The notes under the pieces: model-generated | What the model saw: only the letters and a program-made list of their open reading frames with translations | Databases searched by the model: none | Told to the model about the DNA's origin: nothing | Assembly (NCBI GenBank): GCA_018655525.1 | Contig: JABIJM010000030.1 | Span: 28,083 to 92,082 of the forward strand | From: Candidatus Woesearchaeota archaeon | GTDB lineage: Archaea; Nanobdellota; Nanobdellia; Woesearchaeales; GW2011-AR9 | DNA: 64,000 nucleotides | Reading direction: 5' to 3' | Shown: one piece after another, positions 427 to 64,000 of the stretch | Layout of the letters: each line of letters begins with the position of its first letter | How positions within the stretch are numbered: position 1 is the first letter of the stretch | Made by a program: the position numbers and the translations under genes

Positions 427-1710
427 CTATTTCTTCTTTTTCGCATTAAATGTGAAACCAAAGATTTTAAGAGGCCGATTTTTCTTTTTATAATTCCGAT
501 AGTAGTAATAATACAATCCACCGAGTACAATTAAAATGAACACGAAGAAGCCAGTACTACTTTTTTCAATGATTCCAAATTTCTTTAATTCTGAGGTAGA
601 ATATAAGTCAAAGGTCAAATCAAACTGTTGTTGGAATGGTTTATTATTTGAATCAACATATTTTAATTTAACAGGAACATGTAGCACATCCCTTCTTTTA
701 TTCACATAAACATCAAGCTCTTCACTTTCTGTATCATCAGAATCTATATCACCAATGTAAAAATAATTTGTAGGAGAAACCAATTTATAATCTTCTGATT
801 CTTCTAAAATTAATTCTACAAATTTTACATCTGCAGTCCCTGCATTCGCAATTCCAAGTGTAATTTTTCCAGATTCACCTGATTGAAAAACCGTAGTTTT
901 CTTAATAAAAGGACGAACTTTAGGGACATCCCCCACAGAAACTGCTAAAAAGTCATCAAGAGAATATGCACTTCCTTTCTCATCATTATATGTAATGGTC
1001 ACTGGAACTTTATATAATCCAGGTGTTGCATCAGGTTTTGCAATAATCCGAAATGTTAACGCATCTTGAAAATCATTATTTAAGTTAGAGATTCTCCTTT
1101 CAGAAGAACTTTGGAATGGTGCTAATGGAATATCGTCACCATCAAAATCTAATTTGAATTTAATATCTTTTAATAAAGAATCTGCTTCATTTTTGACAAC
1201 AATCGTTACTTTAGCATCTTCTCCTGGTGCAACTTGTTCTGGTTCAGATTTAATAGAAATAATATCTAAGATTGCATCCTGTGTTTGCACATCAATTAAA
1301 AATTGATCATCAACAAATGTTACTGAATTTGTGCCTAAGTTTACTTCTACTTCTAATTCAAGATCACCTTCAACTGCATCCTCATCAACTTTCAAGGTAA
1401 AAGTAACATATTCTGCATCTGCTCCGGTAGAACTTGCACGTAATTTCCCGAGGTTTTTAGAAGCTGATTCCCCGTACATTTTAAAGGGATATTTTGGATG
1501 TAAAGTCATAATTGCATCTTTATTTGTTTCTTCAGCTTGATTCTCTATTTTAAACTTCACATCAAAAATTTGACCGGGTTCAACTGGATCAGGGGTCTGT
1601 GAAACTAATGTGACAGAGATATCTGAAACGTCTGCAACTGCCAAAGGAATTAATGACAAAAGAAAAATGCTAAGTACAACTAATAAAATTGTTTTTTTTG
1701 AAACCACCAT
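427..1710 (-). CDS. Secreted or cell-surface protein with N-terminal signal/TM, beta-sandwich (CARDB-like) repeats, C-terminal TM and a short basic tail
   Basis: N-terminal hydrophobic segment, acidic repetitive body, C-terminal FFVFILIVLGGLYYYY TM followed by a KKKNRPLK tail. It lies directly upstream of the FtsX-type permease on the same strand. Confidence 0.45.
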   Translation of the reverse strand: MVVSKKTILLVVLSIFLLSLIPLAVADVSDISVTLVSQTPDPVEPGQIFDVKFKIENQAEETNKDAIMTLHPKYPFKMYGESASKNLGKLRASSTGADAEYVTFTLKVDEDAVEGDLELEVEVNLGTNSVTFVDDQFLIDVQTQDAILDIISIKSEPEQVAPGEDAKVTIVVKNEADSLLKDIKFKLDFDGDDIPLAPFQSSSERRISNLNNDFQDALTFRIIAKPDATPGLYKVPVTITYNDEKGSAYSLDDFLAVSVGDVPKVRPFIKKTTVFQSGESGKITLGIANAGTADVKFVELILEESEDYKLVSPTNYFYIGDIDSDDTESEELDVYVNKRRDVLHVPVKLKYVDSNNKPFQQQFDLTFDLYSTSELKKFGIIEKSSTGFFVFILIVLGGLYYYYYRNYKKKNRPLKIFGFTFNAKKKK

Positions 1711-1792
1711 TTTTAAGTGTAGGAGAACTTTATAATTTATAAATGTTCTGATAAAGGTAAGATTAATAAAGGAATTTGCTTTTATTTCTTCA

Positions 1793-2602
1793 ATGGAATT
1801 TAAAGTTGAACGTAAAGGAAACGAAAATATTCATAAATATCCTACAGAAGATCTCAAGGTTGCAGAGAAATTCTCAGATGCGTTAAAGAAAGAGCTTCAT
1901 GAATTCTTAATAGGTGTTGTTGCTTTTGGAAGCAGAGCACGGCGTGAAGCAAAAGAAACAAGTGATATTGATATTCTTGTCATCATGGATGATGTTACAT
2001 TTGTAATCACAGAACCCATGGTTGAAAGTTACAAATTAATCGTAGATAATATTATTAGAAAAACATCTATGAGGTTGCATATAACATCCATGACATTAAC
2101 ATCTTTCTGGGAACATGTGAAAGTAGGTGACCCAATTACAGTTAATATTTTAAGAGATGGCGTTGCAATTATTGATCAAGGAATGTTTGATCCACTTCAA
2201 AAATTATTAAAACAAGGAAGAATCCGCCCATCTGAAGAATCAGTGTGGCGATATTACGGACGATCTCCAAAAACCTTATTAAATTCTAGATGGCATGTAT
2301 TGCAAGGTATGTTAGATCTTTATTGGGCTGTGATTGATGCAGCACATGCAGCATTAATGCGTGCGAATCAAATCCCTCCAACACCGGAACATGTCGCAGA
2401 TTTACTTGAAAAAGTCTATGTCAAACCTAAAAAATTAGAAAAAAAATACGCTGATACTATGCGTAAGTTCTACAGATTAAGTAAAGCAATTACACATAGA
2501 GAAATTAAATATGTAACAGGTTTAGAATTTGAAAAGAATTACAAAGAAGCCGATGACTTCGTTAAAAGAATGAAGAAATTAATTGAACACAATAGTCATT
2601 AA
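1793..2602 (+). CDS. Fused minimal nucleotidyltransferase (MNT) plus HEPN-like domain protein
   Basis: GSRARREAKETSDIDILVIMDD is the pol-beta-type NTase motif (GS...DxD). The C-terminal helical region (LQGMLDLYWAVIDAAHAALMRANQIP) is HEPN-like. Confidence 0.5.
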   Translation: MEFKVERKGNENIHKYPTEDLKVAEKFSDALKKELHEFLIGVVAFGSRARREAKETSDIDILVIMDDVTFVITEPMVESYKLIVDNIIRKTSMRLHITSMTLTSFWEHVKVGDPITVNILRDGVAIIDQGMFDPLQKLLKQGRIRPSEESVWRYYGRSPKTLLNSRWHVLQGMLDLYWAVIDAAHAALMRANQIPPTPEHVADLLEKVYVKPKKLEKKYADTMRKFYRLSKAITHREIKYVTGLEFEKNYKEADDFVKRMKKLIEHNSH

Positions 2603-2604
2603 AA

Positions 2605-3030
2605 ATGAGATTTCTTAAAACAATTTATAGATTATTTCAACCAGTAGACCCCATAGTTTCTAAAAATTTAAAATTGATGGAGAGTGTGGAAGAAGGAGGC
2701 CTTCAAGATTTAGTTACGCAAGAAAGTGCAGGTGGTAATGCAGGGTCATTCCAGGGAAAACTTTGCGCAGGTGCAAACTTCCATTTTGATGAAACTGGAT
2801 TAATTCATGAATTTACAAATGATCCGTCAAAAAAGTATTTTGAAGGACGATTCAAAATTAAAACTGGAATCCCATCGGATATGCGAACTGTTGATTTCGA
2901 TAATTACCGTGAACAATCTAATGAATCAAACAAAATTATCAGAACTGAATATGATTCCCCTAATGTTCCAAAAGAAGCAAAAATAATGATTGAATTAAGT
3001 GTGAAATTGTATAATGAATTACGAGAATAG
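2605..3030 (+). CDS. Hypothetical protein, translationally coupled to the MNT-HEPN gene (starts 3 nt after its stop)
   Basis: ORF with coding-like composition. No recognisable motif. Confidence 0.35.
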   Translation: MRFLKTIYRLFQPVDPIVSKNLKLMESVEEGGLQDLVTQESAGGNAGSFQGKLCAGANFHFDETGLIHEFTNDPSKKYFEGRFKIKTGIPSDMRTVDFDNYREQSNESNKIIRTEYDSPNVPKEAKIMIELSVKLYNELRE

Positions 3031-3066
3031 ATATAAAATTACTTTAAAAAAATAAGAAAGAAATTA

Positions 3067-3363
3067 TTATCCCATTAAATCTGTGAGATATTTTGGAGCC
3101 CTAAGATTTTCAATTTCTCTTGGAAGTGGCGTCTCAGTTAACGCATCATGTAAATACCCCATCATTTTTGCGTGATACATAAATTCTCCACCTTCATGAT
3201 CCAAAGGAACATCTGGAAGACAGATGGAGGGACTAATATAATCAGTATCATGTACTGTACGATTTGGTTCACGCCCACCTGAAATAGCGTCTAACCTACT
3301 TGCCACATAACTCATATCATGTACAATTTGAATCCTATGTTCTAAACTTAATACCATTTTCAA
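3067..3363 (-). CDS. Hypothetical small protein
   Basis: 98-aa ORF, His/Asp-rich (LDHEGGEFMYH). No firm family. Confidence 0.3.
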   Translation of the reverse strand: MKMVLSLEHRIQIVHDMSYVASRLDAISGGREPNRTVHDTDYISPSICLPDVPLDHEGGEFMYHAKMMGYLHDALTETPLPREIENLRAPKYLTDLMG

Positions 3364-3467
3364 CTTCTAATATTTTATTAGTATTTAAGGTGAATACAGA
3401 ATATATAAAGGTTATTAAACACAACCATCACTAGAAACATTTAAGAATCACTTCTTCTTTCTAATTC

Positions 3468-5171
3468 TTGATGAAAGACACTGTAAGAAAATTTGTTTTG
3501 AAAAATGCATTAGATTTCAAAGGAAGCGTGAATCCAAAAGCAATTTTAGGTTTAATTCTACGAAGTTCTCCAGAATTTAAAAAAGATTTTCAAAAGTTAA
3601 ACAAAGAGATTGAATCTTGTATTGCAGATATTAAAGATAAAGATCTCAAAGACATTAAAAAAGAATTAGAAAAATTAGATCCAAACCTTCTAAAAGAAAA
3701 AAAGAAAGAAGTGCCTAAAGGTCCACTTAAACCATTACGAAATGCAGAGAAAGGAAAGGTTGTTGTAAGAATTGCACCATCTCCTTCCGGTGCGTTACAT
3801 ATTGGACATGCTTATGGTTCTTCATTAAACGCATTATATGCACAAATGTATAATGGAAAATTTATTCTAAGAATTGAAGATACAAATCCTGAAAATATCT
3901 ATTCTGGTGCCTACAAACTCATAGAAGAAGATGCACAATGGTTAACAAATAACAATGTATCTCAAGTGATTATTCAATCTGAACGATTAGAAACATACTA
4001 CAAACATGCAAAAACGCTCGTTGATAAAGAAAATGCATATGTTTGCACATGCGATGCAGACACCTGGCGAGAGATGAAAAACAATGGTGAAGCGTGTGCC
4101 TGTAGAAGCTTACCAATAAAAGAACAGCAAGATCGTTATCAAAAAATGTTTAAGGGATTTGCGGAAGGTGAAGCCGTTTTACGTTTAAAAACAGATATTA
4201 AACATAAAAATCCCGCAATGCGAGATTTCGGATTAATGAGGATTAACGATCATTTGCATCCAAAAACAAAAAAAGCAAGCAGAGTGTGGCCATTGATGGT
4301 TCTTTCAGTTGCAATTGATGACCATGAACTCGGTGTAACTCATGTTCTCAATGGAAAAGATCATGCAGATAATGCAAAGAAAGAAACCATGATAATGGAA
4401 CTTCTAGGTTGGAAAGCACCTGAATATCAACATTGGGGAAGAATCAATTTTGAAGGATTTACATTAAGCACATCTAAAACAAGAATAGCAATTGAACAAA
4501 ATGAATATACAGGATGGGATGATGTACGCTTACCTTTTTTACCTGCATTACGTAAACGAGGATATCAATCAGGTGCATTCCAAAAATTCTCAAGTGAGAT
4601 TGGACTTTCACTTACTGATAAAACAGTAAGTGTAGAAGAATTCTGGAAAATGATTAATGCATTCAATAAAGATATCATTGAACCTACTTCAAACAGATAT
4701 TTCTTTGTAGAAGCACCAGTTAAAGTCACGATTAAAAATGCGCCTGAAAAAGAAGTAAAGATAGATTTACATCAAGAAGATAAAAAGCGAGGTGCACGAA
4801 CTTTACAAGGAAAAGGAAAAATTCTCATTCAGAAGAAAGACCGTAAAGATTTAGTTGAGAAAAGAACACACAGATTAATGGATTATTGCAATTTTGAAGT
4901 TAAAGGCGAAGGTGAAACGTTTTCTTCTCAAGATTATGAAGATTACAAAAATGCTGAAAACAAAGGAAAAATAATTCATTGGCTTCCAGATTCAAACGAT
5001 TTAATTAACGTAGAGATTATCATGGGAGACAATTCACGGTTACAAGGAAAAGGAGAATCTGGATTAAAAAATGTAAAAGAAGGTGACATCGTTCAATTTG
5101 AACGATTTGCCTTTGCCAGATTAGATAAAAAGGAAAAAAACAAGCTTGTATTTTGGTACTTGCATAAATAA
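3468..5171 (+). CDS. gltX: Glutamyl-tRNA synthetase, archaeal/eukaryotic type
   Basis: Class I HIGH motif (RIAPSPSGALHIGHAYG), LSTSKT (KMSKS-like), archaeal GluRS length and domain order. An AT-rich TATAAAGG box sits about 60 nt upstream. Confidence 0.85.
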   Translation: MMKDTVRKFVLKNALDFKGSVNPKAILGLILRSSPEFKKDFQKLNKEIESCIADIKDKDLKDIKKELEKLDPNLLKEKKKEVPKGPLKPLRNAEKGKVVVRIAPSPSGALHIGHAYGSSLNALYAQMYNGKFILRIEDTNPENIYSGAYKLIEEDAQWLTNNNVSQVIIQSERLETYYKHAKTLVDKENAYVCTCDADTWREMKNNGEACACRSLPIKEQQDRYQKMFKGFAEGEAVLRLKTDIKHKNPAMRDFGLMRINDHLHPKTKKASRVWPLMVLSVAIDDHELGVTHVLNGKDHADNAKKETMIMELLGWKAPEYQHWGRINFEGFTLSTSKTRIAIEQNEYTGWDDVRLPFLPALRKRGYQSGAFQKFSSEIGLSLTDKTVSVEEFWKMINAFNKDIIEPTSNRYFFVEAPVKVTIKNAPEKEVKIDLHQEDKKRGARTLQGKGKILIQKKDRKDLVEKRTHRLMDYCNFEVKGEGETFSSQDYEDYKNAENKGKIIHWLPDSNDLINVEIIMGDNSRLQGKGESGLKNVKEGDIVQFERFAFARLDKKEKNKLVFWYLHK

Positions 5172-5182
5172 GAGGGATAAAA

Positions 5183-5710
5183 ATGGGAAAAATTTCAAGA
5201 GATACGCCACTTGCAGAAATCACATTACGAAGATATGAAAAACCAACGATGAATGATCGGGATTTGGTGAGAAAATTATGTCTTTCTATTGGATTATTAC
5301 AACCGGGAGATTCACGAGATGTCGTTGTAGATGTTCTTCAAGTGTTATTACATGCGAAACAACGTCGTGAAGAATTACATTCTGAAGAAGTTAAAAATCT
5401 TGTAATGGACCATAGAAAACAAAAACAATTACCAATGTTAGGCGTTGCATCTTCAAATATAAGGCGTCAATTAAAACGACTTAAAGACCTTCATTTAATT
5501 GAAACAAATGCGAATTTGTACAGAATTAGCGAATGGAATAATATGACTGAAATCTTTGAAGAAAAAATCCACAACTTCCTTTTACAATCCGTTATTAGTA
5601 GAGTAAAAGATTACGTAGAGAAAATTGATCAAGAATTCTCTGTTGTCAAAGAAGAAGAATCCGTTAATGGTCAGAAGAATTTATTTGAAACACCTGTAAA
5701 AGAGGATTAA
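5183..5710 (+). CDS. Putative winged-helix DNA-binding protein (hypothetical)
   Basis: 175 aa. The central segment (GVASSNIRRQLKRLKDLHLIE..YRI) resembles a wHTH recognition helix plus wing. Starts 12 nt after gltX. Confidence 0.35.
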   Translation: MGKISRDTPLAEITLRRYEKPTMNDRDLVRKLCLSIGLLQPGDSRDVVVDVLQVLLHAKQRREELHSEEVKNLVMDHRKQKQLPMLGVASSNIRRQLKRLKDLHLIETNANLYRISEWNNMTEIFEEKIHNFLLQSVISRVKDYVEKIDQEFSVVKEEESVNGQKNLFETPVKED

Positions 5711-5916
5711 GGTTTAATAACAACTGTTTCAAGATTTCCTAGATCCTCAAATTGAATGTTACCTTCAGAAAAATTTTTTCTAAATCTAAGAAGATTTAAC
5801 CCTGCTTTTGAGATCTTAGAATTATAATCTCTGATTGCAAAATCGCGAGCAATTTGTCTCATGTAAGAAGCCCTTGCAGTAAATGGGTCCACATATTCTT
5901 TTTGATGATAAACCAT
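5707..5916 (-). CDS. Hypothetical small basic protein
   Basis: 69-aa ORF convergent with the upstream gene. No family recognised. Confidence 0.3.
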   Translation of the reverse strand: MVYHQKEYVDPFTARASYMRQIARDFAIRDYNSKISKAGLNLLRFRKNFSEGNIQFEDLGNLETVVIKP

Positions 5917-5928
5917 AAAAATAAAAAA

Positions 5929-6201
5929 TTAAATAATATCTTCTTCAGCTACGACAATAAAGTCACCTGAAGCAATTACAGCAGAGAAAGGAATTAAAAT
6001 TTGTCCATCTTTAGTTTTCTCTAATTCCATACGATCTGTGTAAGATGTTGGATTACGTAATAAAATATGAATTAATTCTCCTGAACCAACTTCAAAAATT
6101 AAATCACCTACGTGACCAAATTTTTTACCTGATTTTGAAACTATTGTTTTTCCTAGAAGTTCTTTTGAATAGACTTTATCTTTATCAACCATTATTTTCA
6201 C
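5929..6201 (-). CDS. PRC-barrel domain protein
   Basis: 90 aa. The GKxVxSKSGKKFGHVGDLIFEVGSGELIHILL pattern is typical of archaeal PRC-barrel proteins. Confidence 0.55.
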   Translation of the reverse strand: MKIMVDKDKVYSKELLGKTIVSKSGKKFGHVGDLIFEVGSGELIHILLRNPTSYTDRMELEKTKDGQILIPFSAVIASGDFIVVAEEDII

Positions 6202-9715: not shown

Positions 9716-9832
9716 GCCTCTGTAGCATAGTGGCTAATGCGTCTGCCTCGTAAAATCTAGGTTTCCTTGATTTGTTCAGAAATCTTGATTTCAGACAGCA
9801 GAAGATCGGGAGTTCAAATCTCCCCAGGGGCT
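9716..9832 (+). tRNA. tRNA-Thr (anticodon CGU) with a 44-nt canonical intron (9753..9796) after position 37
   Basis: Hand-folded cloverleaf. Acceptor GCCTCTG/CAGGGGC (one G-U), U8 A9, D-arm GCAT-AGTGGCTA-ATGC, anticodon stem TCTGC/GCAGA interrupted by the intron, T-arm GGGAG-TTCAAAT-CTCCC, discriminator U. Oligo-T follows. Confidence 0.75.
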
Positions 9833-19809: not shown

Positions 19810-21066
19810 TTATAAAAATTGTGAAAGAATTCCTAATGCAAAAAGAAGAATTAATACAATTCCAAGAATTTTATGTTTGCCCATTTGGTACTCTGGTTTC
19901 CGTTCTCCAAGCCTTTTGACTTTCCAATACATCAGGATTACAAGTATCGCATCCAATCCACCAGCGAATGCACCAGTTAATCCTAATATCGCAATAAAAC
20001 TTGTAACATCAAACAACACAATAATTAAAGGAACAAGAAAAGCAAGTGCTAAAGCATATGTTCTTTTAAGATTATAATCTAAATGATACATATCAACTAA
20101 TGCTAAACCTAATGTTAAAAACGAGGTAAACATTGCAAGTACTGCAAGAAGGTTTGCAAATAATCCAAGAATAGGATTTGTATAAATGCTTAATGCAACA
20201 GTTGCGATTCTTTGATTCGCTTCAAGAAGTGAAAAATTTTGGAACCCAATAGATCCAACAACAATAAATGTGAAAATGATGTAAAGTAAGATAGGTGTTA
20301 AAGATCCGAAAATGATTGCCTTTTTCATTTTCTTTCTATCTTTATCAAAGATCTGACGAATTTCAGGAATTGCGGGCGATCCCATTAATGCAAATAAAAT
20401 CACTCCATATGGTGCAATGAAGATTCCAATATTAGAAAACAACACATTTTTGATTGATCCTAAAAATGCCATAAATCCAGATCCAAATAAAGATCCTGCA
20501 AGATTCATAAAAATAGTCGTGTCAATTCCTAAAAGGTTAGTTAATTGAATTTTATCATAGGATAATAAACCAATAATCCCTACAACAACAAATAAAAGAC
20601 TAATTAAAATTAATTCCATGGTGCCTGTAGCTTTAACTCCCCTTGAAATAATTATAAAAGTTACAACAAAGAAGATTAAAGTATAATACAAAGGTTCACC
20701 CCAACCAAAAATAGAATGTAATGTTGCACCTTCTCCAATAAGATATGCAATTAATGCACCATAGCCATTAATGAGCAAAGAAACCATCATAAAACGTTTC
20801 CCTGTTTTTCCCAAATATTTTTCTGCATAACCTGTTAATTGATGAGGTTTTTTTGTCCTTAAAACAATCTCTCCTAGAAAAAGATTTAACATCAAAAATG
20901 CAAGACCTAATACAATAATTAAAAATGAACCATAGACAAAACCAACTTGAGAGATCACAAAAGGAATTCCCAACATTCCTGCACCTACGATGGTACCAAT
21001 TAATGTTGTAATTGCCATCAAAAACTTTTTGTTAGCAAGAACTGGATTTAGTTCACCCTTTTTCAT
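19810..21066 (-). CDS. Amino-acid permease family (APC-like) transporter, about 12 TM
   Basis: 418 aa, hydrophobic throughout, with Gly-rich TM1 (GTIVGAGMLGIPF) typical of APC-family amino-acid permeases. Confidence 0.55.
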   Translation of the reverse strand: MKKGELNPVLANKKFLMAITTLIGTIVGAGMLGIPFVISQVGFVYGSFLIIVLGLAFLMLNLFLGEIVLRTKKPHQLTGYAEKYLGKTGKRFMMVSLLINGYGALIAYLIGEGATLHSIFGWGEPLYYTLIFFVVTFIIISRGVKATGTMELILISLLFVVVGIIGLLSYDKIQLTNLLGIDTTIFMNLAGSLFGSGFMAFLGSIKNVLFSNIGIFIAPYGVILFALMGSPAIPEIRQIFDKDRKKMKKAIIFGSLTPILLYIIFTFIVVGSIGFQNFSLLEANQRIATVALSIYTNPILGLFANLLAVLAMFTSFLTLGLALVDMYHLDYNLKRTYALALAFLVPLIIVLFDVTSFIAILGLTGAFAGGLDAILVILMYWKVKRLGERKPEYQMGKHKILGIVLILLFALGILSQFL

Positions 21067-21114
21067 ATACTAAAGAAGATATTTTATGTTTATATATCTG
21101 TTGGAAAAATAAGA

Positions 21115-21146
21115 GCACTCCCCACACTCGACAAGTACGGACAAGG
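21115..21146 (-). promoter_or_regulatory. Operator-like motif CCTTGTCCGTACTTGTCGAGTGTGGGGAGTGC (minus-strand reading), immediately downstream of a TTAAATA box and about 50 nt upstream of the permease start
   Basis: 26/32 identical to 63489..63520 in the same orientation relative to its gene. It contains direct CTTGT repeats spaced about 10 nt apart. Confidence 0.5.
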
Positions 21147-21159
21147 TATTTAAGTAATC

Positions 21160-21864
21160 TTGATTTTTATTTTTAAGACACTCCAATCTTTTGTATTGCG
21201 AAAAGATGAGAGGTCAACGAAAATGAAAAATAAAGAGACATTAGCTGAAATCATTGGAATAATGCTTGGAGATGGTTGTTTGTACAAAGGACACGGATCA
21301 TATCAAACAATAATTACTTCTGGAAAAAATGAAAGAGAGTGGATAATGTATGTTAAAAATTTATTTGAAAACTATTTTGAGAAAACATTTAAAATTGTTG
21401 AAATCAAGTATGGGATTCAAGCAAAATGTCATTCAAAGGAAATTTTAGAGAAATTTTTAGAGGTGGGATTATGTCATGGAAATAAAGTCCATAATAAAGT
21501 CACGATCCCACCCTGGTTATTTCTTAAGAGAAAGTATTTAATTAAAACTGTTCAAGGTTTATTTGATACAGACGGTTGTGTTTATAATAAATATGGGAAA
21601 TATGCTCAAATTGAATTTAAATTTGGTTGTGAAGAAACAACAATATCTGTTTGTAACGCCGTAAGTAATTTGGGTTTTAATACTACAAAAGTTCAAAAAC
21701 AATATAATAATGCAACAGGCAAATATAGGTGGAGATTCTACTTATGTAGACAAAAAGAGATTGATTTATTTTTTGATATAATTAAACCAAAAAATTCTAA
21801 ACATATTGAAAGATATAAAAAAATAAGAAGTGGGGATACTGGGACTTTCAAATGGAAACGTTAA
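21160..21864 (+). CDS. LAGLIDADG homing endonuclease (double-motif; probable start at ATG 21223, MKNKETLAEIIGIMLGDGCL)
   Basis: Two LAGLIDADG motifs (IIGIMLGDGCL; VQGLFDTDGCVY). Paralog of 52946..53662. Confidence 0.7.
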   Translation: MIFIFKTLQSFVLRKDERSTKMKNKETLAEIIGIMLGDGCLYKGHGSYQTIITSGKNEREWIMYVKNLFENYFEKTFKIVEIKYGIQAKCHSKEILEKFLEVGLCHGNKVHNKVTIPPWLFLKRKYLIKTVQGLFDTDGCVYNKYGKYAQIEFKFGCEETTISVCNAVSNLGFNTTKVQKQYNNATGKYRWRFYLCRQKEIDLFFDIIKPKNSKHIERYKKIRSGDTGTFKWKR

Positions 21865-24014: not shown

Positions 24015-24647
24015 CTAAGGAGCTGTACTTCCTGGGATAAGATAATTCATGGGACAACAATTATTCCTCCCCATTTTCTTAACATCATATAGACCTTTAT
24101 CCGCAGAAACAATCATTCTATTTGCCATTTCTTCACGCTCAGTAGAAGAACCCAAATCAATTTTGGGTGTAAGTTTCCCATAAGAATCAACATCTAACGT
24201 TGAAATTCCTGCACTAAAGGTTATTCCTCTCGTAACACCTTCTTTTGGATTAAAAACAACTTTCTTAAAAGCCCAATGTAATCGCTGAAATGTTGCCAAT
24301 GCATTTTCAAAGTTAGTTTCAGGCATAATAATCCCAAACTCTTCTCCCCCATATCGTGCAAAAAGGTCTGTAGCCCTAAGGTGTTTTGAATAGAAATCCG
24401 CTGCCTTTTTAATAACATAATCACCTTCCAAATGACCAAAATTATCATTGTAAGCTTTAAAATTATCAATATCCATCATTGCCAAAGATAAAGGATGTTT
24501 TGATCTATCAAATAACGCAATGTGATATTGTAATTGATCAATAAATGTTCCTTTATTTGCAACTCTCGTCATAGAATCTGTAATTGCCATAGATCTAAAC
24601 TCACTATTAATTAATGCCATTTCAACTCTTGCCAACAAAGAGTCCAT
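24015..24647 (-). CDS. GGDEF domain protein (diguanylate cyclase-like) with an intact GGEEF active site and RxxD I-site
   Basis: ITDSMTRVANKGTF, MMDIDNFKAYNDNFGHLEGD, LRATDLFARYGGEEFGIIMP, ADKGLYDVKKMGRNN. The N-terminus (LLARVEMAL) looks like the last helix of a receiver domain. Confidence 0.75.
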   Translation of the reverse strand: MDSLLARVEMALINSEFRSMAITDSMTRVANKGTFIDQLQYHIALFDRSKHPLSLAMMDIDNFKAYNDNFGHLEGDYVIKKAADFYSKHLRATDLFARYGGEEFGIIMPETNFENALATFQRLHWAFKKVVFNPKEGVTRGITFSAGISTLDVDSYGKLTPKIDLGSSTEREEMANRMIVSADKGLYDVKKMGRNNCCPMNYLIPGSTAP

Positions 24648-24649
24648 AT

Positions 24650-24940
24650 TTAGAGGTTTCTCATTAAATCTAGTCCATCACGAGGAGTTTTACCAAGATT
24701 TAAATCCATTAAAATGAGATGAGGCTCTGTTTTTTCTAAAAGTTGTTCTAATTCGGGAGCAGAAGAAGCAGTGTATAAACGTTCATATCCTGCACTTTTT
24801 AAAACCAATTCTGTAGTTCTTTGAACAGAAGGTTCGTCATCTACAATAATAATACTATAAAATGGTTTATCTTCAGGAGGAATTCTTTTTGGTCTTACCG
24901 TTGATTTTCCATTATTGTGAATGATATCCATAGCTGCCAT
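24650..24940 (-). CDS. Response-regulator receiver domain, truncated (beta1-beta3 only), immediately upstream of the GGDEF ORF
   Basis: IIIVDDEPSV acidic pocket and LILMDLNLG phospho-acceptor Asp. Stops after about 96 aa. TAA-AT-ATG junction with the GGDEF ORF. Confidence 0.6.
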   Translation of the reverse strand: MAAMDIIHNNGKSTVRPKRIPPEDKPFYSIIIVDDEPSVQRTTELVLKSAGYERLYTASSAPELEQLLEKTEPHLILMDLNLGKTPRDGLDLMRNL

Positions 24941-52627: not shown

Positions 52628-52727
52628 GGGCCTGTAGCCTAGCCTGGATAGGGCGCCAGCCTTCTATATGAGAAAGCAATTCTCTGAAGGCAGCTGGATA
52701 CCGTGGGTTCGAATCCCTCCTGGCCCG
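52628..52727 (+). tRNA. tRNA-Arg (anticodon UCU) with a 25-nt intron (52667..52691) after position 37
   Basis: Acceptor GGGCCTG/CTGGCCC (one U-U), D-arm GCCT-AGCCTGGATA-GGGC, anticodon stem CCAGC/GCTGG around loop CUUCUA+A, T-arm GTGGG-TTCGAAT-CCCTC (one U-U), discriminator G. Confidence 0.55.
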
Positions 52728-52945
52728 CTCTTTCTTTTTATTTCTTGTTGAATTTAATATATTCCCAATTTATAGCAATTATTAAAGCAAAACAATATTA
52801 AAAATTCCAGATTAATTTTGATTTTGTCTAGTGCCAGAGGATTTAATCTTTAATAATTTGGGCATTTCAGCATGTTTTAACAACAAAATTCCACACTGGA
52901 CAACTACGCGTATAACTTATAAATACATTTTTCCATTTAATTCTA

Positions 52946-53662
52946 ATGAAAATGGATAAAATAAATTTATATGAGTTTATTGGAATTATGATTGGTGATG
53001 GATGTTTATTAGATTATCCTAAACATAACATTTATGGTATAGAAATAACGGGAAACGCAACTGAAGAAGTAGATTTTTATAAAAAAATAGAAGAGTTCAT
53101 TAAATCAAATTTTGATGTGAATGTAAGAGTTCATGTTCGTAAAGATAAAACGGGACAATCCTTAAAATTAATTTGTTACAGCAAAATACTAGCAAATTTT
53201 CTAAAGAAACAAGGTATAAAAAGAAATAAAACCTATTCAACACAAATTCCAAGTCATTTATTAGAATGGAAATACAGTAAATATGTGATTAAAGGAATCT
53301 TTGAAACTGATGGCTGCATTTATTTCTCTAAATCTAAAAAGATAGCTTATCCAACCTATCCGCGTCTTGAAATTTGTACAGCTAGTTTACAGTTAGCTAC
53401 TCAAATCATTAAAATTTTAAACACAAATGGATTTACCGCAAGATCATATATTAACAAAAACACGATAACTATTTATATGAGCGGTGAAAATATGCTTAAT
53501 AAGTGGTCTACAGAGATAGGCTGGAGCGGTCTAAAAAATCAAACAAAATATGACCTTTGGAAATCTTTAGGATACTACATCCCAAAAATTTCACTTCCAG
53601 AAAGATTAAAATTATTAGGCGTCGGTGGCAAAGTGGCTAATATTGACCTCATAAGTCGATAG
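52946..53662 (+). CDS. LAGLIDADG homing endonuclease (double-motif)
   Basis: FIGIMIGDGCL and IKGIFETDGCIY motifs. Paralog of 21160..21864. Its last about 14 codons overlap the 5' exon of the downstream tRNA-Cys candidate. Confidence 0.7.
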   Translation: MKMDKINLYEFIGIMIGDGCLLDYPKHNIYGIEITGNATEEVDFYKKIEEFIKSNFDVNVRVHVRKDKTGQSLKLICYSKILANFLKKQGIKRNKTYSTQIPSHLLEWKYSKYVIKGIFETDGCIYFSKSKKIAYPTYPRLEICTASLQLATQIIKILNTNGFTARSYINKNTITIYMSGENMLNKWSTEIGWSGLKNQTKYDLWKSLGYYIPKISLPERLKLLGVGGKVANIDLISR

Positions 53663-53715
53663 CAAGCAGTCCCCTGCAGAGGGACGGATCGGGGGTTCGA
53701 GTCCCTCCCGGCGCT
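53619..53715 (+). tRNA. tRNA-Cys (anticodon GCA) candidate with a 21-nt non-canonical insertion (53648..53668) between D-arm and anticodon stem
   Basis: The 3' part is unambiguous: anticodon arm GTCCC-CUGCAGA-GGGAC, variable GGATC, T-arm GGGGG-TTCGAGT-CCCTC, acceptor 3' CCGGCGC, discriminator U. The candidate 5' part GCGTCGG-TG-GCAA-AGTGGCTAATA-TTGA has a perfect acceptor match and D-loop invariants, but a weak D-stem. Confidence 0.45.
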
Positions 53716-61265: not shown

Positions 61266-63458
61266 TTATTTTTTTATTATGTATTCTTTCTTAAAGAAAT
61301 CAACCAACCTTTCAGCTGTTTTCTTTCCAATACCTTCAATTTTCACCAAATCTTCAACAGACGATTCTACAACAGATTTAATTGATCCAAAACACTCCAA
61401 CAACCTTCTAGCATTTACCAAACCCATATTAGGGATTGAGGAAATAAAGAATTCTTGTTGCTCTTTCTCAGATACTGGTTTTCCCGCATGTAAGGAATAT
61501 GTTCTTCCAGTATCCTGTTCACGTTTTGCCATCACTGCAAGTAATGCAGCCGTATCTTTTGGATTCTTCGTATGAAGAATAGGGATATTAAATCCAAGTG
61601 CAATTGAAGCTAACATGCCTCTGATTGCATTCGCATGAACTTTACGGATAGAATACATATCTTCTTCACCTTCAATAATAAGAACTGATTTTTCAAAATT
61701 CGCTTTAAGATCCCTCATTTGATCTAATAAACGACGATCAATAATAGATGCAATAAAGTCAGGAATTTTTTTCAATTCCACACCCACTTTTCCAGAGACA
61801 ACATAATCTGCAGATACTAATTGTTCCGTTTTTACAGAGAGACCCATTTCAATTAATTCTTTAACAATACGATTGTTTTTTTCTCTATGATCTGCAACCA
61901 CTGCAACAACTTGATTTTTAGGAATAAATTGATCTAAAGTTTTATTTTGCTGTTGTTGAACTAATGTGAAATCAGATTTTAATTTGTCTAAATTACGATA
62001 CATCCGCTTCTCTTTATGATGTGCACTCCATTTGTAACCTTCATCCCTTGTACCTGAAGTCATTAAAACTGTAACTTCTCCTTTTTCTAATCTTCCCGTT
62101 CGTCCTCTTCGTTGAATTGCTCTAATTGCAGAAGGCACAGGTTCATAGAAAATAACTTCGTCCACTTTTGGAATATCTAATCCTTCTTCTGCAACAGATG
62201 TCGCAACAAGAATTTGAAATTCACCGTTCCGAAATTGATCCAAGATTTCTTTTTGTTTTTTTTGAGAAAAACCAATACCTTTCTTCTTCGCTTGACCAAC
62301 AAAGATATGAGCCGTAATATTCATTTCTTCTAAATTCTTTACGATTAAACTTGCAGAGTCACGAAATTGAGTGAAAATAATCGCTTTCTTTTCTTTTGTA
62401 ATATCCGAAAGCATTTCTTTCATTTTTGTAAGTTTGGGATGTTCAACATTATTCTCAACCAACTTTTGACTGTGATATAATGCAGATTTAAAATTCGCAT
62501 CCAACATTAAATTCTTTACAGCCTTCGTTTTAGATGTTGCAGCTTGCTTTACAATCCCATCAAGATATTCATAACATTGATGAACACCTTGACACTCCAA
62601 CATTTCAATTCCATGTTCAACCTTCAATGCTTCTGCAACAAGTGACATAGAACGCATTGCATCAAAATCTTTTTCTCCAGAAGAGATTTTCTTAATCAAT
62701 TCTCCTTGTAATCGTAATAAATCTGTTTTACGTGCTTCAGGATCATTACAAAATCCTAATCCTTTTGCTTCTAATAATTTAGATTTCCTACAATCTTTCA
62801 AATATTTCTGAACAATCTTATATTCTTCTGGAAATTTCACAGGAACCCAATTTAATTGTACATCTTGAATATACGGTTTCATATCTGGATCCCTATCCGT
62901 TCGTACTTCCAACTTTTCAATCTTTAAATTGGAACACACTTCCTTTACCGTTTCTAAATCTGAACCAGGAGACGCAGTTAATGCAAGAATTCTACTATAT
63001 TTAGATGTTTTTTCATATCTATCTGCAATCCATACATATGCATATTCTCCCGTTGCATGATGCGCTTCATCAAATATTAACAATGAAACATCTTGAAGCT
63101 TAACTCGTTGATTAATAACATCATTCTCCAAACCTTGTGGCGTTGATACAATTACCTGCGCATCCTTCCATAAAATCTCTCTTTTCTCGGGTTTCACGGA
63201 TCCTGTAAACAACACAACATTCTCTTCTGCAACATTAAGATGATTCTTGAAAGATTCCACATGCTGCTCACACAACGGTTTTGTTGGTGCAAGCATAAGA
63301 ATCTTAGATTTTGGATAATGATGCAACCTTTGAGCTGCCAATAAAAAAGCTAATGCAGTCTTTCCCATACCTGTAGGTAAAACTACTAAAGTATTGGCTC
63401 TAGCAGCAGTGCCTAAAATTGTTTGTTGATACAATCTTGGAGAGAAGTTCTTAATCAT
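61266..63458 (-). CDS. hef: Hef helicase-nuclease (archaeal XPF/FANCM homolog)
   Basis: SF2 helicase (LPTGMGKT, DEAH, TSVAEEGLDIP, QRRGRTGR), then the ERCC4 nuclease (IIDRRLLDQMRDL...LIIEGE) and C-terminal HhH2 (GIGKKTAERL). Confidence 0.85.
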   Translation of the reverse strand: MIKNFSPRLYQQTILGTAARANTLVVLPTGMGKTALAFLLAAQRLHHYPKSKILMLAPTKPLCEQHVESFKNHLNVAEENVVLFTGSVKPEKREILWKDAQVIVSTPQGLENDVINQRVKLQDVSLLIFDEAHHATGEYAYVWIADRYEKTSKYSRILALTASPGSDLETVKEVCSNLKIEKLEVRTDRDPDMKPYIQDVQLNWVPVKFPEEYKIVQKYLKDCRKSKLLEAKGLGFCNDPEARKTDLLRLQGELIKKISSGEKDFDAMRSMSLVAEALKVEHGIEMLECQGVHQCYEYLDGIVKQAATSKTKAVKNLMLDANFKSALYHSQKLVENNVEHPKLTKMKEMLSDITKEKKAIIFTQFRDSASLIVKNLEEMNITAHIFVGQAKKKGIGFSQKKQKEILDQFRNGEFQILVATSVAEEGLDIPKVDEVIFYEPVPSAIRAIQRRGRTGRLEKGEVTVLMTSGTRDEGYKWSAHHKEKRMYRNLDKLKSDFTLVQQQQNKTLDQFIPKNQVVAVVADHREKNNRIVKELIEMGLSVKTEQLVSADYVVSGKVGVELKKIPDFIASIIDRRLLDQMRDLKANFEKSVLIIEGEEDMYSIRKVHANAIRGMLASIALGFNIPILHTKNPKDTAALLAVMAKREQDTGRTYSLHAGKPVSEKEQQEFFISSIPNMGLVNARRLLECFGSIKSVVESSVEDLVKIEGIGKKTAERLVDFFKKEYIIKK

Positions 63459-63480: not shown

Positions 63481-63520
63481 TATAAAAGGCTTGTGGGTAC
63501 TTGTCTAGTGTGGGGTGTGG
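63481..63520 (+). promoter_or_regulatory. TATA box (TATAAAAG) followed directly by the operator-like motif GCTTGTGGGTACTTGTCTAGTGTGGGGTGTGG
   Basis: Second copy of the 21115..21146 motif in the same orientation relative to its downstream gene (start 63565). Confidence 0.5.
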
Positions 63521-63564
63521 GAAATTTCCAAAACTCTTATTAAAACCTAAATCTTACACATTAT

Positions 63565-64000
63565 ATGCAAATACATATCTCAACAAGAAAAGAATGGCGA
63601 GAATGGTTAAGAAAAAATCACAAAAAACAATCTAAAGTCGCCATTATTCTTCACAAAAAGCACACTGGAAAACCTTCTATTTCACATAAAGAATCCATGG
63701 AAGAAGCAATTTGTTTTGGATGGATTGATACGACACTTAAAAGAATTAACGAAGATACCTATCAACGAACATTTGTACGGAGAACAGATAAAAGTAAATG
63801 GAGTAGAAACACCCTTAGATATGCTCAAGAACTCATAAAGAAACGAAAAATGGCCAAAGAAGGTTTACGTAGATACAACCAAGCTAAAGATATACCTCCT
63901 TTGGATCATGATCTTCCAAAGAACCCCGAACCGTCAGAACTTATGAAAAAGATGTTAGGAAAAAATCTAAAAAAATTTCTAAAACTTCCAAAATCAACAA
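63565..64000 (+). CDS. YdeI/OmpD-associated (DUF1801-like) protein, 3'-truncated by the window end
   Basis: MQIHISTRKEWREWLRKNHKK...GWIDTTLKR pattern. No stop before 64000. Confidence 0.45.
   Translation, partial: MQIHISTRKEWREWLRKNHKKQSKVAIILHKKHTGKPSISHKESMEEAICFGWIDTTLKRINEDTYQRTFVRRTDKSKWSRNTLRYAQELIKKRKMAKEGLRRYNQAKDIPPLDHDLPKNPEPSELMKKMLGKNLKKFLKLPKST

Follow-up and report, generated by a model that had tools for sequence, protein, structure and literature searches.

Near the end of a 64-kb stretch of DNA from a Candidatus Woesearchaeota archaeon (DPANN; GC content ~33%), here called the window, a TATA box and an adjoining motif lie between two divergent genes, hef and a YdeI-like gene, which raises the question of which gene the motif serves and whether it acts as DNA or as RNA. 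Read directly from the sequence, TATAAAAG (TATA) was located at nt 63481–63488 and was followed by GCTTGTGGGTACTTGTCTAGTGTGGGGTGTGG, with G at nt 63489, CTTGTGGGTACTTGT at nt 63490–63504 and GTGTGGGG at nt 63508–63515; the ATG of the downstream + strand gene was at nt 63565, 44 nt past position 63520. An earlier note on this DNA had described the TATA and motif at nt 63481–63520, and its sequence and coordinates were confirmed. That note had taken the motif to be CTTGT-N5-CTTGT...GTGTGGGG, regarded this site as the second copy (copy 2) of one situated about 42 kb away (copy 1), and assigned copy 2 to the YdeI-like gene and copy 1 to a permease gene.

Table 1. Features at copy 2 and at the other box sites of the window
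Feature	Position (nt)	Strand	Basis
Copy 2, conserved core box; GTACTTGTCTAGTGTGGGGTGTGGGA on + strand	63497..63522	(-)	Conserved upstream of hef in L012, L023, L026, L024/L025 and L030
Copy 2, 8-nt spacer GCTTGTGG	63489..63496	(-)	Length fixed at 8 nt in 16/16 sites
Copy 2, TATA box; TATAAAAG on + strand, CTTTTATA on hef strand	63481..63488	(-)	22 nt from hef ATG
hef, helicase-nuclease, 730 aa; presumed target of copy 2	61266..63458	(-)	Pfam DEAD, Helicase_C, ERCC4, HhH
Putative TATA-like box TTATTAAAA, ~21 nt before YdeI-like ATG	63536..63544	(+)	Read from sequence
YdeI/OmdA-like gene, cut by window end; far-side neighbour	63565..64000	(+)	OmdA/YdeI domain
Copy 1, TATA-spacer-core; minus strand CTTAAATA CCTTGTCC GTACTTGTCGAGTGTGGGGAGTGCTC	21113..21154	(+)	Pattern and PWM; kept in related strain L014/L019
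LAGLIDADG family B gene, presumed target of copy 1, 68 nt from TATA	21223..21864	(+)	Pfam LAGLIDADG_3, LAGLIDADG_2
Third copy; minus strand TTTATAAG TTATACGC GTAGTTGTCCAGTGTGGAATTTTGTT	52882..52923	(+)	L079 orthologous gene carries full box
LAGLIDADG family A gene, presumed target of third copy	52946..53662	(+)	Pfam
Inverted half-box TTGTCTAGTG, ~60 nt from third copy	52824..52833	(+)	Same arrangement in L020

CTTGT-N5-CTTGT occurred twice in the window against 0.25 occurrences expected, and a 30-nt degenerate pattern, CTTGTNNGTACTTGTCNAGTGTGGGGNGTG, matched only nt 63490–63519 (+) and nt 21116–21145 (-), with 0.00 matches expected in the window; a chance origin of the motif is excluded. A third, weaker site, GTAGTTGTCCAGTGTGGAA, absent from the list in the earlier note, was observed at nt 52889–52907 (-). 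Scanning the window with a position weight matrix (PWM) at ≥12 bits returned these three known sites and no fourth, and the core box of copy 2 had a PWM score of 61 bits. Copy 1 sits between a gene of the Trp/Tyr permease family, which has its own TATA-like box ~24 nt before the ATG, and the divergent LAGLIDADG family B gene, towards which its promoter is presumed to fire on the + strand. The promoter of the third copy would likewise fire on the + strand, towards the LAGLIDADG family A gene 22 nt away; on its other side was a convergent tRNA gene, with no ORF in between. The two LAGLIDADG genes of the window were 30% identical to each other. An inverted half-box, TTGTCTAGTG, was found 60 to 70 nt beyond the full box in two unrelated loci, namely at the third copy and at approximately nt 1050–1060 of L020, where it lay beside the TATA of the opposing gene; a role as a secondary site or in looping is possible.

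Similarity between copies 1 and 2 was confined to ~42 nt, in keeping with the earlier view that local duplication is unlikely. Beyond the core, nt 21065–21115 and nt 63523–63564 were loosely alike, with TTTCCAA, a second TATA-like box, ATCTT and TATATG, a layout that was not kept in L012 or L023 and that may reflect two AT-rich leaderless promoters. The window also contained, at nt 24015–24940 (-), a receiver-domain gene (Response_reg) followed by a GGDEF-domain gene, according to precomputed Pfam matches; diguanylate cyclase-type signaling is uncommon in archaea.

All three window sites possessed an AT-rich octamer exactly 8 nt before GTAC or GTAG. In copy 2, the conserved core begins at GTAC (nt 63497) and ends at approximately nt 63522; it is asymmetric, ~24–26 bp long, and contains two (A/T)GTG units 7 to 9 nt apart, and no palindrome or dyad was detected in it by eye. 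The conserved unit is TATA-N8-G-N3-TTG(T/A)C-N-AGTG-N3..5-(A/T)GTG, in which AGTG-TGGGG-(A/T)GTG becomes AGTG-GGT-AGTG or AGTG-ACC-AGTG in distant lineages, and GTGTGGGG reads GTGGGTAG, GTGACCAG or GTGCGGGA in other lineages. The definition of the motif as CTTGT-N5-CTTGT had to be given up, since the first CTTGT lies outside this unit, TTTTCTCC (L006), GTCTATCC (L020), CTTTATCT and others standing in its place; it was replaced in L006, L020, L024, L026 (both sites), L030 (zinc-finger site), L031, L036, L079 and the third window site.

One genome per species and a metagenome collection were scanned with the pattern GTACTTGTCNAGTGTGGGG. True matches were found in the Woesearchaeota contigs L006/L015, L012, L014/L019, L018, L020 and L021, all of which had the TATA-8 nt-core layout. 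The genome scan yielded 2 true matches and 7 chance matches, and the metagenome scan yielded 6 related loci and 3 apparent chance matches; chance matches of the two scans fell in GC-rich bacteria. Three viral scans gave no true match. The negative controls were ~40 places in bacterial, viral and other metagenomic contigs where the core pattern matched by chance; none had such a TATA at the 8-nt position. A loose composite pattern occurred 16 times in 194 kb of related DNA, compared with 1.4 times on average and at most 6 times in shuffled sequences. The distance from TATA to core was 8 nt in 16 of 16 sites, one secondary site in L026 deviating; the 64-kb window and L026 each had three boxes, of which two in L026 showed the canonical spacing. 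Because 4 of the 16 sites came from loci fetched for containing the motif, and so carry an ascertainment bias, the loci fetched by protein homology constitute the fair test; here the box was carried by 4 of 4 hef loci and by both radA loci beyond L026, and the LAGLIDADG A loci gave one clean and one degenerate site.

Comparison of hef loci did not bear out the assignment of the motif to the YdeI-like gene, or of copy 1 to the permease gene, as the box stayed with hef while the gene on the far side varied or was missing. Contigs L023, L024/L025, L026 and L030 were fetched as carriers of Hef homologues without reference to the motif, and their Hef proteins shared 87% (L023), 70% (L024/L025 and L026) and 68% (L030) identity with the window Hef; L012, a locus found by the motif scan, had the same arrangement and a Hef estimated to be ~93% identical. 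The box was thereby observed upstream of hef in six Woesearchaeota lineages, with Hef down to ~68% identical. Each time, TATA and box were separated by exactly 8 nt, and the distance between the TATA and the hef ATG was 22 nt in the window and 21–23 nt across the six lineages. Across the box from hef, L012 had an unannotated 256-aa ORF at a distance of 175 nt, a co-directional gene of L024 had its 3′-end ~30 nt from the box, and L026 and L030 had an unrelated small gene. The YdeI-like gene, whose full-length copy encodes 178 aa with an OmdA/YdeI domain (E = 8e-08), is probably not the target of copy 2. The Hef orthologue of the close relative L023 (nt 765–4514; 1249 aa, 87% identity) contained an intein with a LAGLIDADG domain, and the window Hef had no intein.

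TATA-like octamers of 60 window genes piled up 20–23 nt before the ATG; therefore, the genome mostly uses leaderless mRNAs and the spacing at hef is canonical. Read towards hef, the spacers between TATA and core were purine-rich and resembled a TFB-recognition element (BRE), as in CCACAAGC, GGACAAGG and GGAGAAAA. On the gene-directed strand, A at -3 was present in 10 of 16 sites and a purine at -6 in 15 of 16, compared with 1 of 16 and 9 of 16, respectively, on the opposite side of the TATA. Both positions characterise strong Sulfolobus BREs (PMC5817253). The TATA octamer of an archaeal core promoter is expected ~22–27 nt upstream of the transcription start and, for a leaderless mRNA, ~20–25 nt before the ATG, a range that includes the spacing at hef. 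Given the hef synteny, the leaderless spacing, the BRE polarity and the separate TATA-like boxes of the YdeI-like and permease genes, the TATA at nt 63481–63488 is predicted to be that of the hef promoter, and it is this opposite-strand promoter, rather than the YdeI-like gene, to which the motif most likely belongs.

Box units also preceded genes unrelated to hef. The box, 8 nt and TATA were located upstream of a gene for a 96–103-aa protein followed by radA in three of three lineages (L026, L031 and L036, the latter two fetched through RadA protein homologues), L026 having two further boxes upstream of the 96-aa gene and radA; the radA of the window organism was not found in the window or in the fetched flanks. 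The box was thus retained at hef promoters in six lineages and at radA-operon promoters in three, with diverging flanks. The 96–103-aa protein encoded directly upstream of radA (L026, nt 20809–21099; L031, nt 5661–5972; L036, nt 5705–5998) was conserved, with the pattern ...KKFRAG..SATVW...ISIERSY..GKWQST...NDLPKA...; searches against Pfam, NCBIfam, PHROGs and PDB sequences gave no usable match for this small gene, and a PC4-like identity, which was an impression only, was dropped. The 5′ UTR of the radA operon was likewise conserved in the three lineages (L026, nt 20690–20808; L031, nt 5590–5676; L036, nt 5625–5704), with a hairpin showing some compensatory changes and an invariant TGAAAYAAAATGCGA. 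A CCTC...GAGG pairing in this region would sequester a Shine-Dalgarno-like GAGGT, and the 5′ UTR may be a translational control element.

An orthologue of LAGLIDADG A in L079, 55% identical and adjoining NFACT_N, carried a full box, and L071 had a degenerate, shifted box beside a tRNA gene. Both catalytic Asp residues were invariant in the family alignment, and the predicted structure (pLDDT 90) was closest to the archaeal homing endonuclease I-Tsp061I, with I-DmoI and I-SceI also matched. The window protein (nt 52946–53662) and its L079 and L071 orthologues shared 38–72% identity and a conserved C-terminal helical extension of ~45–60 aa; the gene was near NFACT_N in the window and L079 and adjoined a tRNA gene in the window and L071, a stability unusual for a free-standing homing-endonuclease gene. 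In L006, the box stood at a leaderless distance of 22 nt before the gene of a Bro-N protein (Pfam), which was distantly similar to Escherichia coli DinD (pairwise BLASTP E = 3e-07), and in L030 a box preceded the gene of a 322-aa zinc-finger protein. Downstream of the box in L015, which is the same region as L006, two similar hairpins ~100 nt apart (nt ~1240–1270 and 1350–1380) were each followed by GGGGTATG, as CCACAGCAAGCTGTGGGGTATG and GCTGCAAGCAGCGGGGTATGAAC. For the radA operons, LAGLIDADG B and the LAGLIDADG gene of L079, the TATA was ~68–155 nt from the start codon, so that 5′ UTRs would be needed. A single genome can thus carry the box at several promoters that are not homologous, with constant spacing to the core promoter elements.

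Taken together, it is fairly likely that the motif is a cis-regulatory DNA box forming the upstream part of the hef promoter and shared with a small regulon of recombination and nuclease genes. On the hef strand, the order would be the asymmetric core of ~24–26 bp, CCCACACCCCACACTAGACAAGTAC, the 8-bp BRE-like CCACAAGC, the TATA CTTTTATA, and 22 nt to the ATG, a distance that implies a leaderless hef mRNA. The core would then occupy about -39 to -64 relative to the putative hef start, directly upstream of BRE/TATA, where a sequence-specific protein would bind it and act on TFB/TBP recruitment at the adjacent BRE/TATA. Since the core lies wholly upstream of the BRE, a position typical of archaeal activators, a role in activation or recruitment is favoured, and the opposite sign, with a repressor occluding TFB, is possible. 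The conservation of the 8-nt spacer could also mean that it belongs to the binding site and is not a BRE. As the similarity is limited to ~42 nt and the box is found again at promoters that are not homologous, both in this genome and elsewhere, a shared DNA-binding factor, already considered likely in the earlier note, is the best explanation. The core-8 nt-TATA unit heads the radA operon, two LAGLIDADG families and the Bro-N/DinD-like and zinc-finger genes, and therefore would mark a small regulon, here sampled from ~200–280 kb of DNA. The gene names, on which the theme rests, suggest that this regulon is centred on recombination, fork repair and nucleases; its inducibility by DNA damage is speculation.

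The TATA is nearly symmetric, and it is possible that it fires rightward, towards the core; spanning about -14 to +12, the core would then be a classical operator of the YdeI-like and permease genes, at which a repressor would block RNA polymerase. Directly downstream of the TATA is the classical position of archaeal repressor sites, and copies 1 and 2 both lie ~75–80 nt upstream of a + sense ATG. However, the YdeI-like gene is missing beside the box in L012, L024, L026 and L030, in each of which hef is present, and L024 has no gene at all in that direction; the third window site has only the convergent tRNA gene on that side; the BRE polarity is opposite to the YdeI-like and permease genes; and these two genes have TATA-like boxes of their own at leaderless distances (~21 and ~24 nt), which makes such an operator unlikely. 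Alternatively, the motif might be transcribed and act as RNA, as a structured 5′ leader, a riboswitch-like element or the 5′-end of a small RNA: its GC content is high for a genome with 33% GC, and the distance from the upstream TATA would place the start site inside GTGTGGGG. Single-sequence folds of the three window sites were, however, no more stable than those of shuffled sequences (z = +0.33, +0.79 and +1.16), Rfam gave only noise (E ~9, with nothing at the gathering threshold), and sequences beyond the core were unrelated between sites, so that an RNA leader is very improbable; the differences between copies were also not compensatory. A tRNA fragment or split tRNA was rejected, as ARAGORN and Rfam found no tRNA at the box sites, and a D-arm-like resemblance of the motif seen by eye did not hold. 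Elsewhere in the window, Rfam predicted three tRNA genes of 97–117 nt, presumably with introns (nt 9716–9832, 52628–52727 and 53619–53715 (+)), only one of which was detected by ARAGORN, with an odd anticodon call; the tRNA gene at nt 53619–53715 overlapped the 3′-end of the LAGLIDADG ORF.

Two other readings keep the box as DNA and give it another reader or role. It might be an ORB-related site of Orc1/Cdc6, either as part of a replication origin or as the target of a non-initiator Orc1 paralogue acting as a DNA-damage regulator. The box shares with ORB its asymmetry, a length of ~24 bp, CCAGTG(G) at the centre and many G residues towards the 3′ side; GACCAGTGGGAAG (L024) and GTCCAGTGTGGAA (nt 52892–52904) resemble the Pyrococcus mini-ORB TTCCAGTGGAACT (PMC1904270), and the third site has its inverted half-box 60 nt off across AT-rich DNA. 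In Sulfolobales, Orc1-2 controls damage-inducible promoters (PMC6061795), and in Sulfolobus such promoters have a motif immediately before the BRE (PMC5817253). The invariant features of ORB are TTCC and GAA (PMC1904270), but TTCC occurred in no site and GAA was approached at most in L024 and the third window site. Moreover, the sites are single, 21–42 kb apart and locked to the TATA at 8 nt, no orc1/cdc6 gene was located within ~10 kb of the three window sites and no Orc1/Cdc6 Pfam family among the neighbours, and the GC skew had no turning point at the box sites. Membership in ORB was rejected, with the invariant TTCC/GAA and the clustered, inverted copies beside orc1/cdc6 both missing, and the wider ORB-related reading is improbable. 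An Orc1-2-like regulator is still one candidate reader. The box might also be the recognition or homing site, or a travelling promoter, of the adjacent LAGLIDADG endonucleases, the hef and radA copies being secondary. Monomeric LAGLIDADG enzymes read asymmetric sites of ~20 bp, and LAGLIDADG genes, 30% identical, stand beside two of the three window boxes; LAGLIDADG A, with its invariant catalytic Asp residues, resembles known homing endonucleases, and the zinc-finger gene behind the box in L030 may encode a nuclease, a sequence reading unconfirmed by Pfam. Against this, lineages without a neighbouring endonuclease gene also have the box at their hef and radA promoters, LAGLIDADG A is syntenic across lineages (tRNA gene, NFACT_N) rather than sporadic, the boxes beside endonuclease genes are intact, unlike a disrupted homing site, and an active enzyme specific for the box would cleave at hef and radA as well, which renders this reading quite improbable. 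A homing site would be intact only in alleles that lack the endonuclease gene, and no such allele was recovered. It is also unlikely, but conceivable, that the box is read by a conserved monomeric LAGLIDADG protein whose own gene carries it, as a regulator or nicking factor of a hef/radA regulon in DPANN; such a reader would have the scaffold of a homing endonuclease, domesticated or active to this day, and would be like bacterial WhiA in principle but independently evolved. In a weaker variant of this idea, an Orc1-2-like paralogue would read an ORB-derived box, and a Sulfolobus-type damage circuit would extend to DPANN. A WhiA-like regulator was not supported for LAGLIDADG A, which matched homing endonucleases and kept the catalytic Asp residues, WhiA not being among its best 50 matches.

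For the favoured reading, a promoter box shared by hef and a small regulon, the target gene is changed from the YdeI-like gene to hef and the motif is redefined. To our knowledge, transcriptional control of archaeal DNA repair is understood only in Sulfolobales, and we know of nothing comparable for the DPANN archaea, an uncultured group with very small genomes. The occurrence of the box before hef, the radA operon and nuclease genes in related archaea suggests a previously undescribed DNA-repair gene circuit, and a full-text literature search turned up no earlier account of this motif, nor one of a DPANN hef/radA regulon. The box at the hef and radA promoters offers a testable entry point, as it defines a candidate regulon and provides a 26-bp bait for the regulator; in addition, the promoter module of the host recombination genes is shared by nuclease genes of the LAGLIDADG type.

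Transcription-factor sites that adjoin the BRE are a known kind of element; the motif, the lineage and the regulon are new. Archaeal upstream activating sequences that abut the BRE include the GvpE-UAS of haloarchaeal gas-vesicle promoters, the Ptr2 sites of Methanocaldococcus and the site of TFB-RF1 (PF1088) in Pyrococcus. Like the box, these are bipartite or asymmetric sites of ~20 bp at a fixed distance from the BRE and act on TFB/TBP recruitment, but their sequences, regulators and regulons are different, none being associated with hef or radA and none coming from DPANN. The PF1088 site is also mentioned in work on the A(N)TTTC hexanucleotide of UV-inducible Sulfolobus promoters (PMC5817253), an element similar to the box in being non-palindromic and directly upstream of BRE/TATA, at -39 to -44, in being common to promoters of DNA-transfer and DNA-repair genes, and in that it is thought to help recruit TFB. 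Its proposed reader is the DNA-damage regulator Orc1-2 (PMC6061795). However, A(N)TTTC is unrelated in sequence, spans 6 nt instead of ~24 nt, and is found in Crenarchaeota at hundreds of promoters. ORB and mini-ORB elements (PMC1904270) share with the box an asymmetric form, a CCAGTGG-like centre, a G-rich flank and a similar length, but the box has no TTCC and, in nearly all sites, no GAA, is not clustered, has no adjoining orc1/cdc6 and keeps a TATA at exactly 8 nt. The SOS boxes of LexA are alike in concept, one box preceding genes for a recombinase, repair functions, DinD-like proteins and selfish nucleases or mobile elements; they are, however, palindromic operators that overlap bacterial promoters and bind the LexA repressor, whereas the box described here involves no LexA and no sequence similarity to them, and its position upstream of the BRE suggests a different mechanism.
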